61,573 nt of DNA from assembly GCA_035649755.1 (NCBI GenBank), contig DASRIY010000377.1:1-61573 (forward strand). The letters run 5' to 3'. The DNA is from Candidatus Methylomirabilota bacterium (GTDB taxonomy: Bacteria; Methylomirabilota; Methylomirabilia; Rokubacteriales; CSP1-6). Below are positions 2,682 to 59,116 of the stretch, in pieces. How positions within the stretch are numbered: the stretch's first letter is position 1; each line of letters opens with the position of its first letter. A model generated the notes under the pieces. That model had not been told where the DNA came from. It ran no database searches and worked only from the letters and a program-made list of their open reading frames with translations. The translations under genes were made by a program, and so were the position numbers.

Positions 2682-4088
2682 TTAGTCGAGGCGCTCCACG
2701 AGTTTCTTGAAGACTTCCCCGCGGTGCTCGAAGTTGTCGAACATGTCGAAGGAGGCGCACGCCGGCGACAGCAGCACGACGTCGCCCGGCAGGGCGAGCG
2801 CGCGCGCCCGGTCGACGGCCTCCTGGAGCGTCCGGCACTGCGTCGCCGGAATCGTCGCGGCGGCGAGCGCGGCGCCGATCTTCGGCGCGTCCTCGCCGAT
2901 GAGGAGCGCGTGGGCCACGCGCCCGCGCGCGGCGTCGGCCAGGGGCTTCCATGCCTGGCCCTTGCCCTTGCCGCCCGCGATGAGCACGATCCGCTCCGAG
3001 AAGCTCTCGAGCGCCCGCAAGGTCGACGCCACGTTGGTGCCCTTCGAGTCGTTGTAGTACGGCACGCCCTTGACCTCGCGGACCCACTCGATCCGGTGCG
3101 CGACGCCCCGGAAGCGCGCGATGGCCGCGCGGATGGTCGCCGGCGCGAGGCCGGTCCAGAGCGCGCACGCCGTCGCGGCCAGGACGTTCTCGACGTTGTG
3201 CTGGCCGCGCAGGAAGATCTCCGACAGGGGACAGATCTCCTCCACGTGGCCGTTGAGCCGCGCGACGATCCAGCCCCCGCGCACGAAGACGCCGTGAGAC
3301 AGCTCGCGCTGCCGGCTGAACCACACGACCGGCGCCTGTGCCCGCGGGCCGAGGGCGCGAGTGGCCTCGTCGTCGGCGTTCAGCACGGCGCAGTCGGATG
3401 GCCCCTGGTTCGCAAAGATGCGGGCCTTCGCGTCGACGTAGGCGGCGAACGTTCCGTGCCGGTCGAGATGATCGGGCGTGATGTTGAGCACCACGGCGAC
3501 GCGCGGCTGGAAGGTCTCGGCGGCCTCGAGCTGGAAGCTCGACACCTCGCAGACGACGAGCCCGTCCGCCGGGAACGACAAGGCGTTCACGCAGAGCGGC
3601 GTCCCGATGTTGCCGGCGACCAGCACCGGTCGCGGCTGCTGCGCCAGCACGGCGCCGATCAGCGCGGTGGTGGTCGTCTTGCCGTTGGTCCCGGTGATCG
3701 CGGTCGTGTCCGCCTCCATCGCCCGCCAGCCGAGCTCGAGCTCGCCGATGATCGGCACCCGGCGCGCGCGAGCCGGCGCGAGCTGGGCGCCGTCGAGCGG
3801 CACACCCGGGCTCACCACGACCAGGTCGGCGCCGGCGAAGGCCGAGGCCACATCGTCGCCGCCGCCGATCAGACGCACACCCAGGTCGGCGAGGCCGGTC
3901 GCCTCGCGGCCGAGCCCGGCGACGGGCTTGGCGTCGAGCCCGGTGACGTCGGCGCCCGCGGTGCGCAAGAGCCGCGCCGCCGCGACCCCGCTCTTGGCGA
4001 GCCCGACCACGGTGACGCGCCGGCCGGCGAGCGAATTCAGATAGGCCTGGCCCCGGGTCACCGTCTCCACCTCCTCGAGCGAGCTCAT
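2682..4088 (-). CDS. murD: UDP-N-acetylmuramoylalanine--D-glutamate ligase
   Basis: Rossmann-like N-terminus VTVVGLAKSGVAAARLL and Mur-ligase P-loop GTNGKTTTTALIG; its stop directly abuts the ftsW ATG. Confidence 0.95.
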   Translation of the reverse strand: MSSLEEVETVTRGQAYLNSLAGRRVTVVGLAKSGVAAARLLRTAGADVTGLDAKPVAGLGREATGLADLGVRLIGGGDDVASAFAGADLVVVSPGVPLDGAQLAPARARRVPIIGELELGWRAMEADTTAITGTNGKTTTTALIGAVLAQQPRPVLVAGNIGTPLCVNALSFPADGLVVCEVSSFQLEAAETFQPRVAVVLNITPDHLDRHGTFAAYVDAKARIFANQGPSDCAVLNADDEATRALGPRAQAPVVWFSRQRELSHGVFVRGGWIVARLNGHVEEICPLSEIFLRGQHNVENVLAATACALWTGLAPATIRAAIARFRGVAHRIEWVREVKGVPYYNDSKGTNVASTLRALESFSERIVLIAGGKGKGQAWKPLADAARGRVAHALLIGEDAPKIGAALAAATIPATQCRTLQEAVDRARALALPGDVVLLSPACASFDMFDNFEHRGEVFKKLVERLD

Positions 4089-12757: not shown

Positions 12758-12994
12758 CTACGGCAGGCGCACCACCGTCCAGCCGCGAACCTCGATCTCG
12801 CTGTCTTCCGCCGGACGGCCGCGACGACCGAAGCGCCGGCGCTCCATCGCCGGCGGCGCCTCGTGCCGGCGGCGGCGCTTCACGACGCGCCGGTCGAGGA
12901 TCACCTCGACGTTGCGCTCTTGTCCCAGCAGCACGCGCAGCGAGTCGTAGAGCTCTCGACGCCCTTGCGACACGATGAACAGGAGCCGCTCCAC
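12758..12994 (-). CDS. Small Arg-rich protein, copy 1 of a 4-member family (hIVSR...VEVIxDRR...ERR...GW)
   Basis: GTG 12994 is preceded by GGGAGG with a 4-nt spacer and lies 12 nt after the amidase stop. Sequence VERLLFIVSQGRRELYDSLRVLLGQERNVEVILDRRVVKRRRRHEAPPAMERRRFGRRGRPAEDSEIEVRGWTVVRLP aligns with the ORFs at 25895, 47348 and 56942. Confidence 0.6.
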   Translation of the reverse strand: MERLLFIVSQGRRELYDSLRVLLGQERNVEVILDRRVVKRRRRHEAPPAMERRRFGRRGRPAEDSEIEVRGWTVVRLP

Positions 12995-13005
12995 GGTTCC
13001 TCCCG

Positions 13006-14418
13006 TCAGTCCAGCGTCGGACGATGTTGGGCCCACGGCCGGGCGCGCTCGAAGGCCGCGGAGGCCCTGAGCACTGTGACGTCATCGAAGCGACGGCCGA
13101 CGATCTGCAAACCGATCGGCAGTCCGTCCTTCGTGAAGCCGCACGGCACCGACGCGGCCGGCTGGCCCGTCATGTTGAACGGGTATGTGAACGGAATCCA
13201 GGCGTATGGCTCGACCAGCTTGCCGGCGATCTCCGTCGGGTTATCGAGCCCCACCGGAAACGGCGGGCACGCGATCGTCGGCGTCAGCAGCAGATCGTAC
13301 GTCTCGAAGAGTGTCTTCGGGTGCGACCACCACGCGAGCCGATCGAACCACGCCTGCACGTACTTCGTCGGCGGGTTCTTGAGCGTCTGCTCGATCAGCC
13401 GGTAGAGCCCGGGCTCGATGTCGCCGCGGCGGTCGAGGTACGGCGCCATGCGCGTCGCGATGCCGCCGCAGAAGAGCTCGCCCCACGCCTCGCGCGGCGA
13501 GGGCCAGCGGGGCGACACCTCCTCGAGGCGGCAGCCGAGCTCACGGAAGGCGCGCGACGCCTTCGCGCACGCCGCGCGCACCTCCGGGTCCACTGCGTCG
13601 GCGAACCCGAGATCGTCGGCGTACGCGACGCGCAGCCCTTTGAGGCTCCCGCGCAGCGCCTTCACGTAATCCACGGGCGGGCCGGGCAGCGAGTACTGAT
13701 CGCGCTCGTCGGGGCCGGCGCACACCGTCATCATCAGCGCGGCATCCGCCACCGTTCGGGTGAGCGGGCCAATGTGCGAGAGGCTCCACGCGCCGCTCGT
13801 CGGGTACGTCGGGATGCGCCCGTAGGACGGCTTGTGGCCGAAGATCCCGGTGCACGAGGCCGGGATGCGGATCGAGCCGCCGCCGTCGGTGCCGATGTGG
13901 AGCGGCCCCAGGCCCGCCGCCGCGGCCGCCGACGCGCCGCCGCTGGAGCCGCCCGGCGTGCGCTCGAGGTTCCAGGGATTGCGCGTGATCCCGAAGACCA
14001 GGTTGTGAGTCGCGCCGATCCAGCCGAAGGTCGGTGTGTTGGTCTTGCCGAGCATGATGGCGCCGGCCGCCTTCATGCGCTCGACCATCGGCGCGTCCTC
14101 GGTGGGAACGTTGTCGCGGTAGAACGGCGTGCCGAAGGTCGTCCGCACGCCGCGGGTGATGACGAGGTCCTTCACCGAGAACGGAACACCGTGGAGCGGC
14201 CCGAGCCGCGCGCTGCGCCGCGTGAGCGCGCGCTCGGCGGCCTTCGCCTCGCGCCGCGCTTGCTCGTTGGTCAGCGTCACGAAGGCGTTCAGCTTTGGAT
14301 TGACGTCCTCGATGCGCGCCAGCACCGCGCCGATCACGTCCACCGGCGAGACCTTCTTCTTCCGGATCAGCCCGGCCAGCTCGGTCGCGGACAGCCAGGC
14401 GAGTCGCGTGTCAGGCAT
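13006..14418 (-). CDS. Amidase (amidase-signature family, GatA-like)
   Basis: [15 protein letters not shown] signature and conserved Ser-cisSer-Lys region; 470 aa. Confidence 0.9.
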
Positions 14419-25894: not shown

Positions 25895-26155
25895 CTACTC
25901 GACGCGGAACATCGCGTAGCCGAGCGACCGGAGCTGCGTGTCGACGAAGGGCTGATGACGCCGCTCGGCGCCACGCCGCTCGACCTCGCTCTGACCGTTC
26001 GCTACGCGGCGATCACGACCCGATCGGCGATCCAGGAACACCTCGACATTTTCCTCGGCCGCGAACTGCCGCTCCAGGTATTCGCACAGGCTTGCCTGGT
26101 CGCGCGCGACGATGAAATAGTGCCGAGTGATGACCGCCACACGACTATATTCCAC
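25895..26155 (-). CDS. Small Arg-rich protein, copy 2 of the family
   Basis: ...HYFIVARDQASLCEYLERQFAAEENVEVFLDRRSGRDRRVANGQSEVERRGAERR...LRSLGYAMFRVE. Lies 15 nt downstream of the NYN gene stop. Start uncertain (GTG 26155 or GTG 26140). Confidence 0.55.
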   Translation of the reverse strand: MEYSRVAVITRHYFIVARDQASLCEYLERQFAAEENVEVFLDRRSGRDRRVANGQSEVERRGAERRHQPFVDTQLRSLGYAMFRVE

Positions 26156-47347: not shown

Positions 47348-47641
47348 ATGGCCCAGCTGGTCTTCATCGTCTCTCGCCACCGTCCCAGGCTTCGCGACTA
47401 CCTCCAGCGCGAGTTCGCCGGCAACGCCGAGGTCACCGTGATCGTCGACCGCCGGCTCGGCGAGCGGCGGCTCGACAGGGGGTCACGCAGTCCGGATCGG
47501 CGAAGCGCCAGCCGCCGTCAGGAGCAGACCGACGAGCGGCTGCGCTCGATGGGCTGGGCGATCGTGTGGCGGGACGACGCCACTACGGTCTGCGTCCCGA
47601 GCGAGGCGGCGGCGATGGCGCCGGGAGCCGGTCCCGACTAG
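47348..47641 (+). CDS. Small Arg-rich protein, copy 3 of the family
   Basis: MAQLVFIVSRHRPRLRDYLQREFAGNAEVTVIVDRRLGERRLDRGSRSPDRRSASRRQEQTDERLRSMGWAIVWRD... Confidence 0.6.
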   Translation: MAQLVFIVSRHRPRLRDYLQREFAGNAEVTVIVDRRLGERRLDRGSRSPDRRSASRRQEQTDERLRSMGWAIVWRDDATTVCVPSEAAAMAPGAGPD

Positions 47642-56700: not shown

Positions 56701-56941
56701 GGGTTCGCCCTCCGGGTGCGGTTGGACCGCGTGAAAGGTCTGGTCGTCGATGCTAAGCGATCCGGGATTCGAAGGAAAGTGCGCTTGGGGGGTGTACAAA
56801 CTACAATCCGGGGAGTAAGTTCTACTCGGCTCCCCGTGCGGCGGCCCGGTCTAGTCGGGATACGTCGCCGCGCCGCGGTCCTGCGCGGCGGGCCTCGTAA
56901 TCAGGGGTTGGCATTCGCGTTGCTGCAGAAGGAGCACCGTC

Positions 56942-58312
56942 GTGGCTGATCAAACCAGGCGCCTCTGCATCGTCTCTCGCGATCGACTCGACGGCCGGGA
57001 TTTCCTCGCGGCCGTCCAGGCATCGGTGCAGCCGGAAGACTACCTGGAAGTCATCGTCGACCGGCGTCGCGGCGAGCCATCGAGCCAGTGGCATGGCGCC
57101 AACGATCGGCGCAAGCGGCCTCACGTGGATCTCGCGCTGCTAGAAAGCGGCGTCGCGATCGTTCCAGCGGCGACTCCGGCAGACGAGAGACGACGCGAGC
57201 CTGCTTCCCGCGGGCCTTCTCCCAGAGACCGGACCAGCGGCCAACGCTTCGAGGACCGCCTGGTCGACGGAGAGATTTCACAGGAGGACTGGTCCGCGTC
57301 GCCAGCGCGCGACCCATTCTCGCAGCGGGCTCCATCGCGGTTCGCGTCGCGAGTCGTGACGGCGCCCGATGACTACCGGCCGGAGCCCTATGAGAGCAGT
57401 CTTGACGATGACACGGAGCGGCTCAAAGCGATCCGAGGCTTCAGCCAGCGCTTGAGGCAGGAGAAGCACCCCTCTCGGTCGCGGCTACCGTGGATCATCG
57501 CCGTGCTGGCGATCGCCGTCGCCCTGGTCGCCGCGCTGATCGCGCTGTCCCCGCTGGGAAATTCGCTCAAGCAGGCCTTCAAGCAAAGCCTCGCGGCTCG
57601 CCGCTCGTCGGAGACGTCTCGCACCGCATCCGAGGCATCTCGCACCGCTTCGGAAACACCACGCGCTTCGTCGGAGACGCCGCGCGCTTCGTCGTCTCGT
57701 GTCCCGTCGGCAACACCTCGCGCCACTGAGCCCGCCGCCGGTGGCGAGCCCTCGCCCGTGCCGTCGCGTGACACGAACGCCACGTCTCCACGAGACAACC
57801 GCGAACTGCCCGCCGCCAATAGCGCTCCGGCCGCCGGCCGCAGAGCTGGGTCGAGTGTGAACGAGCCCAGCGCCGAGAGCGCCCCGGCGGCGCCGCAGAC
57901 CTCGGATGGAACGACGTCTGGTCGCCGACCGAGACCGAGTGTGAGCGAGCCCGCACCGAGACGTGCGGCTCTGCCACCGGCGCCGGAGCCCGTGGTGCCG
58001 CCGTCGGAGTCCACGGGGAGGTTGATGACGTCGCCACGATTCCCCGACTTGCCTCGCGTCGATGTGAGCCGGGAGCCCGGCGGGATCTATTCGGCGAGAA
58101 TCGTCGACCCCGCAGGTCGGCCCCTGACCGACGCCGACGTCCTGCTGCTCGCGCGCATGTCGGACGGCACGGTCGAGAACGTCATGATGCAGTTCTCGCC
58201 GGATCGCGGGATCTATCGCGGTGCGCTGCCAGCAACCCGTTCGTCGATCGTCTATCTCAGGCTTCGCGTGATCACCGGCAACAAGCGCATCGAAATTCCG
58301 GTGGAACCATAG
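56942..58312 (+). CDS. Membrane-anchored protein: N-terminal copy 4 of the small Arg-rich domain, disordered linker, TM helix, Ser/Thr/Pro/Arg repeats, C-terminal beta-sandwich-like domain
   Basis: GTG start. RRLCIVSRDRLDGRDFLAAVQASVQPEDYLEVIVDRRRGE...NDRRKRPHVDLALLESGVAIV aligns with the three small ORFs. TM helix PWIIAVLAIAVALVAALIAL. The C-terminal ~90 aa (GIYSARIVDPAGRPLTDADVLLLARMSDGTVENV...YRGALP...LRLRV) is reminiscent of YtkA/FixH-type Ig-like domains. Confidence 0.6.
   Translation: MADQTRRLCIVSRDRLDGRDFLAAVQASVQPEDYLEVIVDRRRGEPSSQWHGANDRRKRPHVDLALLESGVAIVPAATPADERRREPASRGPSPRDRTSGQRFEDRLVDGEISQEDWSASPARDPFSQRAPSRFASRVVTAPDDYRPEPYESSLDDDTERLKAIRGFSQRLRQEKHPSRSRLPWIIAVLAIAVALVAALIALSPLGNSLKQAFKQSLAARRSSETSRTASEASRTASETPRASSETPRASSSRVPSATPRATEPAAGGEPSPVPSRDTNATSPRDNRELPAANSAPAAGRRAGSSVNEPSAESAPAAPQTSDGTTSGRRPRPSVSEPAPRRAALPPAPEPVVPPSESTGRLMTSPRFPDLPRVDVSREPGGIYSARIVDPAGRPLTDADVLLLARMSDGTVENVMMQFSPDRGIYRGALPATRSSIVYLRLRVITGNKRIEIPVEP
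57605..57724 (+). repeat. Degenerate 18-21-bp tandem repeats encoding S-E-[TA]-[SP]-R-[TA]-A units
   Basis: SSETSRTA / SEASRTA / SETPRA / SSETPRA / SSSRVPSATPRA read directly from the sequence. Confidence 0.6.
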
Positions 58313-58351: not shown

Positions 58352-59116
58352 ATGGACTCCCCAGAGAGTCTCTCGATCCTGCAGCAATATAGCCTGCTGA
58401 TCTTGCCCGCCCTCGTTGTGGCGGAGCAGTTCGGGATCCCCCTGCCCGCGGTGCCGGCCCTGCTAGGCGTCGGGGCACTCGCAGCGAGCGGCCAGGTCAG
58501 CATTCCGATGGTGCTGGGTGTGATCGCGGCGGCGGCATTCACCGTAGACCTGACCTGGTACGAGCTGGGCCGCCGCCGTGGCGCTGCGGTACTCGCCAAG
58601 ATCTGCCAGATGTCACTGCGGCCGGACTCAAGCGTCGGCAGGACGGAGCGTATTTTCGCAAGGTACGGCGCCGGGTTCATTCTCGTCGCCAAGTTCGTCC
58701 CGGGGCTCAGCACCATCGTGCCACCACTCGCGGGCATCGCCGGGATCGGTCGGGCCCGGTTCGCCATCTACGAGGTCGGCGGCGTGCTGCTCTGGGCCGG
58801 CACCTGGGTGGGGCTCGGCTACTACCTCAGCGATGCGGTCTCCTCGATCGCCCTTGCCGCCACCAGGCTCGGTCGTCTGATGGCTGTCATAATCGTCGCG
58901 GCAATCGCCGCCTACGTTATCGTCCGATACGTGCGCCGGCGTGTTCGCCTGCGCGCATTCCGGCCGGTGCCGTCCGTAGCCGAGCGTCTGGAGGGAACGC
59001 CGTACGCCGTCCCCGCTAGTGGGCCGGATGCGATCGGACGCGATGGCGACCAGGAGGGGCACGGCGAATCCCGAGGAGACACGCGGGTCACCGCAGTCGC
59101 TCGACGCGCCGCCTGA
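58352..59116 (+). CDS. DedA family membrane protein
   Basis: VVAEQFGIPLPAVPALLGVGALA...YELGRRRG...RYGAGFILVAKFVPGLSTIVPPLAGI, the SNARE-associated/DedA pattern. Confidence 0.85.
   Translation: MDSPESLSILQQYSLLILPALVVAEQFGIPLPAVPALLGVGALAASGQVSIPMVLGVIAAAAFTVDLTWYELGRRRGAAVLAKICQMSLRPDSSVGRTERIFARYGAGFILVAKFVPGLSTIVPPLAGIAGIGRARFAIYEVGGVLLWAGTWVGLGYYLSDAVSSIALAATRLGRLMAVIIVAAIAAYVIVRYVRRRVRLRAFRPVPSVAERLEGTPYAVPASGPDAIGRDGDQEGHGESRGDTRVTAVARRAA

Follow-up and report, generated by a model that had tools for sequence, protein, structure and literature searches.

A double Asp-Arg-Arg module and a putative divergent YtkA-like domain at the two ends of a predicted single-pass membrane protein of Rokubacteria

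Membrane-bound regulators of the ToxR/CadC type place a small effector domain in the cytoplasm and a sensor domain in the periplasm, joined by a single transmembrane (TM) helix. Domains of the YtkA-like family are extracytoplasmic and membrane-anchored and serve copper trafficking, as in CtaK and YcnJ; Bacillus subtilis YtkA, now named CtaK, is a membrane-anchored lipoprotein implicated in CuA assembly (PMC13344008). A third described system is CleD, whose motif for binding cyclic di-GMP (c-di-GMP) is DRR-x11-[RK]RxxD (PMC7382256). Here we describe a gene whose product resembles each of these in part, located at positions 56942-58312 on the plus strand of a 61,573-nucleotide stretch of DNA (contig DASRIY010000377.1 of assembly GCA_035649755.1; the whole stretch is called the window below). 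From the N-terminus, the protein carries an Arg-rich module that profile comparisons relate to small free-standing proteins, a disordered linker, one predicted TM helix, a second linker and an immunoglobulin (Ig)-like C-terminal domain (C-domain). We read it as a membrane-tethered signalling or adaptor protein with an architecture analogous to that of ToxR and CadC, and give this reading a probability of about 0.5. The window belongs to a metagenome-assembled genome (MAG) that is 86% complete, with 4.55 Mb in 492 contigs and 55,868 six-frame open reading frames (ORFs). Rokubacteria (Methylomirabilota) are abundant, uncultured soil bacteria.

The gene starts with GTG, and a Shine-Dalgarno-like GAAGGAG (56928-56934, plus strand) lies 7 nt upstream. 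In an alignment of 20 diverse full-length members, the homologues share the start residues M/V-A-D-Q with the window protein. Searching 5.8 billion proteins yielded 62 homologues with 34-98% identity, almost all of them full-length. All of the named ones are annotated as 'hypothetical', and no domain-specific Pfam family is on record for any of the 62 (one member has a single PF07382 entry); the label 'FtsN' that one source attaches to a homologue is probably due to low-complexity sequence. Six matching records were found in the species-genome collection, and all those with a name are Rokubacteria/Rokuibacteriota MAGs. The order of module, TM helix, spacer and C-domain is also present in further genera (L040-L042), and a profile search detected the C-domain in 49 of 251 genomes of the phylum, with open frames of 360-550 aa covering it in other genomes. 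The ORF is one gene, because more than 60 homologues in several genera keep the whole architecture in one frame despite large in-frame changes in linker length. The two-gene alternative raised with the original prediction was checked as well, and no in-frame internal start with a Shine-Dalgarno-like sequence was found between aa 60 and 240. A scan for promoters and terminators gave nothing useful. The gene and its regions are as follows; identities are mean pairwise values over the 62 homologues, and length ranges come from the same set.

56942..58312 (+): whole gene in the ORF list, 456 aa plus stop codon
56942..57169 (+): N-terminal module, aa 1-76; 70% identity, 66-77 aa
57170..57400 (+): inner (cytoplasmic) linker, aa 77-153; 27% identity, 26-169 aa
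57401..57487 (+): acidic cluster and amphipathic juxtamembrane helix, aa 154-182; 57% identity, 23-30 aa
57488..57550 (+): TM helix, aa 183-203; 56% identity, 17-21 aa
within 57551..58027 (+): post-TM stretch, aa 204-222; 36% identity, 9-19 aa
within 57551..58027 (+): outer linker, aa 223-362; 32% identity, 88-180 aa
57608..57691 (+): four heptads inside the outer linker (SETSRTA, SEASRTA, SETPRAS, SETPRAS), aa 223-250, found by regular expression
58028..58309 (+): C-domain, aa 363-456; 77% identity, 94-101 aa

The C-domain is the best-conserved region of the whole protein, and the three spacer stretches, at 27-36% identity, vary widely in length. The inner linker is rich in R, S, P, A, D and E, and the extracytoplasmic stretch of aa 204-362 is rich in S, A, P, R and T. 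Invariant residues of the full-length alignment include D155, D156, D157 and I164 from the juxtamembrane block as well as P183 and W184 from the TM block. The juxtamembrane helix follows the motif ERL-x-AIR-x-F..R, which it shares with a partner subfamily (ERARFENILSFRRR) that recurs beside the gene in relatives. The TM helix itself, with the sequence PWIIAVLAIAVALVAALIAL at aa 183-202, has a Kyte-Doolittle value of 3.03 over 19 residues at aa 184-203 and is the sole segment of its kind. Among the 62 homologues, the 15 residues flanking the helix contain on average 5.0 Lys and Arg on the N-terminal side versus 1.9 on the C-terminal side, and the 182 charged residues before the helix include no hydrophobic segment, signal peptide or other export signal. 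Because of this positive-inside charge bias, the single TM helix and the missing signal peptide, an N-in/C-out (type II single-pass) topology is supported computationally, which places the module on the cytoplasmic side and the Ig-like domain on the outer side. In all of this the protein agrees with the original prediction, which had named a low-complexity linker (here aa 77-153), one TM helix (aa 183-203), this same topology and a run of SE[TA][SP]R[TA]A repeats. The repeats amount to the four heptads listed and a degenerate tail that extends to 57724; TRF reports a 21-nt period with 2.1 copies at 57650-57694, and none of the 19 homologues aligned with the window protein (34-67% identity) has the heptads, their rows being gapped there.

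The first of the two conserved ends is the N-terminal module, which was compared in both directions with the small Arg-rich proteins of the same genome. Three free-standing paralogues in the window served in this homology test.

12758..13036 (-): copy 1
25895..26155 (-): copy 2
47348..47641 (+): copy 3

A forward hidden Markov model (HMM), built only from the N-termini of the full-length homologues and run against the six-frame ORFs of the genome, matched a TM-anchored paralogue on contig C420 (E-value 2.7e-18), a frame on contig C72 (1.6e-6), copy 2 (2.3e-5), the C-terminus of a protein on contig C282 (8.5e-4), copy 3 (1.1e-3) and others. The reverse profile, made from 15 copies with the TM-fused members excluded, matched aa 6-76 of the window protein with an E-value of 2.3e-5 among the same 55,868 ORFs, and hhalign aligned the module with the small-protein profile at 97.8% probability (E-value 9e-13). 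The real N-terminus scored 32.4 bits against 13.1 bits for the best of 2,000 composition-preserving shuffles; Arg-richness is therefore not the cause of the match. Judged by these profiles, aa 1-76 are homologous to the small free-standing Arg-rich proteins, and the similarity over some 80 residues that had first been noticed in the sequence holds under a profile of many homologues. An iterated search found about 20 copies of the module in the MAG, among them two ORFs that lie divergently, back to back, on another contig (C467:3156-3738, with 3202-3738 on the plus and 3156-3461 on the minus strand).

Searched against 1.84 billion cluster representatives, the module profile returned 3,525 matches at E-values of 1e-3 or lower, 1,164 of them at 1e-10 or lower, which corresponds to a family of about 3,500 clusters at 50% identity. 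From the best 150 of the 3,525 we took the 148 newly returned sequences as family representatives, the other two belonging to the TM-fused family; 74 of the 148 are 100 aa or shorter and 19 exceed 200 aa. Across the phylum, 114 of 151 sampled genomes, from 48 of 54 genera, carry the module, a single genome having as many as 32 copies. Its most conserved feature is a pair of Asp-Arg-Arg (DRR) triads.

57059..57067 (+): first triad, D40-R41-R42, at the end of beta2; R41 and R42 invariant, D40 at least 90% conserved
57104..57130 (+): second triad, D55-R56-R57, and the K-R-P-H-V-D after it, which caps alpha2; R56 and R57 invariant

The alignment on which these values rest mixes TM-fused and free-standing modules, and its sole invariant residues are R41, R42, R56 and R57, with D40 nearly so. 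The pattern DRR-x8-40-[DE]RR occurs in 144 of the 148 representatives and in 60 of the 62 TM-fused proteins, and [DE]RR-x-x-P-x-[VIL]-[DE] in 59 of the 62 TM-fused members and 63 of the 148 representatives. Compared with the small proteins, the TM-fused subfamily has a three-residue insertion in helix 1, a shorter loop, and GEPS and x-W50-x at the places of GERR and ERR; the extra Arg pairs of the loop are not kept, so that RRxxD is found in one of 62 TM-fused proteins versus 95 of the 148 representatives. The missing pairs are a subfamily difference and do not exclude membership in the double-DRR family. The indispensable part of the module is accordingly the two triads only, not the whole Arg loop.

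An AlphaFold2 model of the module made from the mixed alignment has a predicted local distance difference test (pLDDT) score of 67.9, below 50 in the loop, and gives the order beta1 (7-12), alpha1 (19-28), beta2 (35-40), a disordered Arg loop with both triads (41-59), alpha2 (60-69) and beta3 (71-75). Foldseek found no fold match for it in the PDB (best E-value 1.3), and scans of the whole protein, the module, the C-domain and the small copies against Pfam and NCBIfam gave nothing specific, the hits being TM or low-complexity noise only. The one match of the module profile among PDB sequences, a weak one to a bacterial SEFIR domain (E-value 0.26), covers alpha1-beta2 alone and was rejected as a generic beta-alpha-beta resemblance that does not amount to homology. 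The module is an unnamed domain with no Pfam or NCBIfam match, and we refer to it as the 'double-DRR' module.

The survey of domain architectures proposed with the original prediction was run on the best 150 of the 3,525 matches and shows fusions to GAF, GAF with MshEN, receiver and zinc-ribbon domains as well as tandem modules. By Pfam, the module is C-terminal to GAF in P0145 and to GAF and MshEN in P0151, and N-terminal to the receiver (REC) domain in P0090 and P0177; coiled coils, TM pairs and the TM plus Ig family described here are further partners. Two or three tandem modules occur in seven metagenome proteins (P0063, P0064-P0067, P0069 and P0111), some of which end in a Cys4 zinc ribbon, and this suggests dimers or higher oligomers as a possible working form of the module. 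In the genome of the window, a protein of 1,163 aa (C282:1719-5207, minus strand) consists of a zinc ribbon, a class III nucleotidyl cyclase, AAA_16, TPR_MalT and, at its extreme C-terminus, the double-DRR module. Cyclase-ATPase-TPR proteins such as those of the mycobacterial Rv0386 type have a LuxR helix-turn-helix (HTH) at the position that the module holds in this protein. Module-bearing six-frame open frames of about 1,070-1,500 aa recur in many genera of the phylum and may share its architecture. In fusions that contain a sensor, the module occupies the C-terminal position usual for an output domain, and it is because of this placement in GAF, GAF-MshEN and cyclase-STAND-TPR proteins that an effector role in signalling is suggested.

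The second conserved end is the C-domain. Its alignment was used for the model and for the profile searches. AlphaFold2 predicts an all-beta sandwich (pLDDT 84.2; predicted template modelling score, pTM, 0.74) with eight strand segments by DSSP. Foldseek matched it in the PDB to Ig-like sandwiches only, at E-values of 0.01-0.1 and TM-scores of 0.5-0.6, with DUF4426 PA0388, CBM56, the copper/silver-binding CrdA, complement MG domains and P19/FetP as neighbours. Such weak and generic matches mean that the fold alone cannot assign the family. No match to PF13115 (YtkA) or PF05751 (FixH) was found in Pfam even at E-values up to 10, the best E-value of the C-domain profile against PDB sequences was 1.7, and direct hhalign comparison with canonical Met-rich YtkA gave a non-significant probability of 1-16%.

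The link to YtkA runs through intermediates. In the genome searches, one region (G016:C31) was matched by the C-domain profile and, independently, by PF13115. It belongs to a bridge group of secreted Rokubacterial YtkA-like proteins of 130-150 aa with the motif RMADGM (L033, L035-L038, L043 and L044), and the five members that were scanned score 38-54 bits on PF13115 (cut-off 25.9), with FixH second. By hhalign, seven bridge members match the C-domain alignment at 98.9% (E-value 3e-17) and canonical YtkA at 95.9%. C-domains of the same architecture in other genera give sub-threshold YtkA matches as well (E-values 0.0014 and 0.028). We assign the C-domain, via these intermediate sequences only, as a divergent YtkA-like Ig-like sandwich; the YtkA/FixH-type resemblance originally predicted thus stands at the superfamily level through bridge proteins and fails as a direct Pfam match. 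The most conserved motif of the outer domain occupies the place of the YtkA loop.

58154..58180 (+): R-M-S-D-G-T-V-E-N, aa 405-413; most conserved motif of the outer domain, with invariant columns in the C-domain alignment

This motif aligns with RMADGMSVV of the bridge group and with SMTMPGMAPM, the Met-rich loop of canonical YtkA. The Met-rich loop, a putative copper site, is absent from the C-domain, where only M406 and M416 are conserved, and no His or Cys is conserved. The loop site is retained with a changed chemistry, and a copper role is uncertain. The protein would extend the YtkA/CtaK family by a divergent branch that has no Met-rich loop.

The neighbourhood of the gene differs between two clades. 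In the clade of the window (with L009 and L047), the upstream synteny comprises FecR, SBP_bac_1, a peptidase M19, a small lipoprotein and a divergent lipoprotein of 211-220 aa, and the downstream genes vary. A more distant clade (L001-L005, L045 and L046) belongs to the same GTDB genus; in L001-L005, a tandem paralogue with module and TM helix comes next. The order in L045 and L046 is DUF6600, Meth_synt_2 (minus strand), the orthologue of the window gene, a module and TM paralogue of 250-274 aa, and a MASE1-HisKA-HATPase_c kinase, with the last three on one strand and separated by gaps of 29-126 nt; the kinase is also found in L001. A three-gene operon is probable at L045:7001-10896 and L046:7001-10885, and also at L001:6001-9911. 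A gene for a module with a zinc ribbon was seen on the opposite strand about 1.5 kb beyond this three-gene set. The window's own genome carries the partner-type paralogue on contig C420 (33% identity over 270 aa).

Within the window, the gene looks monocistronic. A Tat-signal gene of the beta-lactamase family (PF00144; 55432-56799, minus strand) stands between the conserved divergent lipoprotein gene (213 aa in the window) and the gene described here; it is absent at that place in L009 and L047 and looks like a local insertion. Downstream, a DedA/VTT-domain gene (58352-59116, plus strand) begins 39 nt after the stop codon. We considered it as a conserved neighbour and rejected it, since in L047 three other genes intervene, two of them on the opposite strand; co-transcription of the two genes in the window, if any, would be a local accident.

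In the reading that we favour, that of a membrane-tethered signalling or adaptor protein, the YtkA-like domain would be the extracytoplasmic binding end, with a metal or an envelope or periplasmic partner as its ligand, and the DRR module would be the cytoplasmic effector end. Coupling would proceed by altered clustering, localisation, partner capture or proteolytic release, any of which would change the availability of the module at the membrane, because disordered spacers of variable length cannot transmit a rigid conformational change. The pattern of conservation speaks for this reading (module 70%, juxtamembrane segment 57%, TM helix 56% and C-domain 77%, against 27-36% in the spacers), and the signalling context in relatives, with the MASE1 kinase downstream in L045, L046 and L001, is counted on the same side. 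The original suggestion of a one-component transmembrane signalling protein is to this extent a reasonable architectural analogy, with some support from the output position of the module in soluble fusions.

Several observations weigh against this reading. We infer the effector role of the module from domain order alone, and where the module is fused to a receiver it lies N-terminal to REC, which is not the usual position of an output domain. The model of the module reaches only moderate confidence (pLDDT 68), and no known fold matches it. The clade of the window shows no conserved operon partner and no adjacent kinase, and the loss of the putative Met-rich copper loop leaves the copper link weak. 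A disordered outer spacer of 88-180 aa is also more typical of envelope-spanning tethers such as FtsN, RodZ and TonB than of ToxR-like sensors. A bolder form of the signalling reading takes the double-DRR module as an effector domain so far overlooked, with nucleic acid or a guanine nucleotide as its ligand, and the protein, its tandem partner and the MASE1 kinase as founders of a new class of membrane-tethered one-component regulators; we regard this as speculative and probably too strong. If this is true, such regulators would inform the cytoplasm of Rokubacteria about periplasmic conditions by way of a remodelled metal or ligand site of the YtkA type.

A signal might instead run from the inside out: with its Asp-Arg-Arg triads, the DRR module would bind a second messenger of the guanine type, for example c-di-GMP, and thereby alter the action of the outer YtkA-like domain, comparable to LapD, membrane-localised PilZ proteins and receptors with the Arg-rich region (ARR) of CleD. 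Like the CleD peptides (PMC7382256), the module has an Asp beside paired Arg in a disordered loop that could become ordered with a ligand, and Asp-Arg-Arg could plausibly be a base-reading unit for guanine-type ligands. The genome encodes the means to make c-di-GMP, with 7 GGDEF and 5 PilZ domains, and the family resembles PilZ in being multi-copy and fused to signalling domains. A relaxed motif, DRR-x8-35-[RK]RxxD, is present in 95 of the 148 family representatives, but the strict Cle motif occurs in only one of them and in none of the 62 TM-fused proteins, where even the relaxed motif appears once and ERR is replaced by x-W-x. A Cle-type binding mode is thus not supported by the motif content of the window protein. 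With about 20 modules to 7 GGDEF domains, receptors would outnumber cyclases to an unusual degree; the GAF-MshEN-module proteins would, oddly, combine three ligand sensors and lack an output domain; and with a disordered spacer on each side of the membrane, allosteric coupling is unlikely. On balance, we consider an inside-out receptor unlikely.

An envelope tether or membrane-anchored chaperone is likewise improbable. The protein would then be mainly a periplasmic factor of the YtkA/CtaK type that handles metal or attaches to the cell wall or outer membrane; a long spacer would hold it, as is the case in CtaK, FtsN and RodZ, and the module would only position or regulate it. This would fit an outer domain that is the most conserved part (77%) and homologous, on the evidence above, to membrane-anchored copper-trafficking factors (PMC13344008), Foldseek neighbours that include the periplasmic copper- and iron-binding CrdA and P19/FetP, Ser/Pro/Ala-rich periplasmic spacers of a length typical of tethers, and the small secreted versions of the domain in the same phylum. 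It is opposed by the replacement of the Met-rich loop by RM-x-DGTVEN with no conserved His or Cys, and by the absence of cytochrome-oxidase and copper genes beside the gene in any context examined. The module (70%) and the juxtamembrane helix (57%) are moreover nearly as conserved as the outer domain, which argues that the N-terminal part is not a mere anchor.

The original prediction had also offered an anti-sigma-like architecture, in which the module would hold a soluble protein (a free DRR paralogue, a sigma factor or a response regulator) at the membrane and free it after an outside signal or proteolysis. A binding domain inside, a TM helix and an outer domain do make up the anti-sigma layout, the many soluble paralogues are possible partners, and the tandem second TM-anchored module protein of relatives suggests contacts between modules. 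Pfam and NCBIfam scans, however, detected no anti-sigma domain of the zf-HC2/RskA type, and the genes listed within 6-7 kb on five related contigs include no sigma-factor family, nor was one noted among the examined neighbours in the window; the anti-sigma-like label has no specific support, and sequestration in general seems very doubtful to us. That the frame is an annotation artefact, either two genes or a chance open frame, can be dismissed for practical purposes: both linkers are of low complexity with a weaker periodicity of GC at third codon positions (GC3) than the domains, and spurious long ORFs are common at 68-70% GC, but the module, TM helix and C-domain stay in one frame in 62 homologues through many in-frame insertions and deletions, and the Shine-Dalgarno-like sequence missing from internal in-frame starts is strong at the annotated GTG.

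Genomes of Rokubacteria carry many copies of a domain that has neither a name nor a solved structure. The gene described here indicates that this module is on the (predicted) cytoplasmic side and tolerates tethering to the membrane, which is what remains of the suggestion that the fusion is the best handle on the small proteins: the soluble fusions say more, and the TM-fused subfamily has lost half of the Arg loop. Taken together, the TM fusion and the soluble fusions point to an effector role in signalling. Both ends of the protein are small and separately foldable (76 and 94 aa) and suited to binding assays and nuclear magnetic resonance (NMR).

Compared with known systems, the window protein shares with YtkA (PF13115; B. 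subtilis CtaK and the C-terminal domain of YcnJ) and FixH (PF05751) an extracytoplasmic, membrane-anchored Ig-like sandwich, and it keeps the YtkA-type pattern xGxPLxxAxVxLxxxM...GxYxGxL. It differs from them in having no direct Pfam match, in the change of the Met-rich loop MxMPGMxPM to RM-x-DGTVEN, and in its anchor, which is an N-terminal TM helix with a large cytoplasmic part, whereas YtkA-type domains are held by a lipid anchor or a CopCD transporter. With the ARR of Caulobacter CleD and the c-di-GMP-sequestering peptides derived from it, the protein has in common a flexible Arg-rich stretch that opens with D-R-R and contains further Arg pairs and Asp; DRR-x11-[RK]RxxD is absent, and the loop lies within a small alpha/beta domain, while that of CleD is appended to a receiver domain. 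RodZ and FtsN are similar in their small cytoplasmic N-domain, basic juxtamembrane segment, single TM helix, long Pro/Ser-rich periplasmic spacer and small C-terminal beta-rich domain, but are not related to the window protein in sequence or domains (no XRE HTH, SPOR or RodZ_C). ToxR, CadC and TcpP have the same small N-terminal cytoplasmic effector domain, disordered linker tolerant of length changes, single N-in TM helix and C-terminal periplasmic sensor domain. Their effector is a winged helix of the OmpR/PhoB type, whereas the module has no match to Trans_reg_C or any other Pfam family and is predicted to be beta-alpha-beta-loop-alpha-beta; the window protein further has a disordered spacer of 88-180 aa between the membrane and the outer domain, and DNA binding would here be an analogy. 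With the likeness to RodZ and FtsN being one of layout only, the closest architecture is, by analogy, that of the ToxR/CadC-type regulators.

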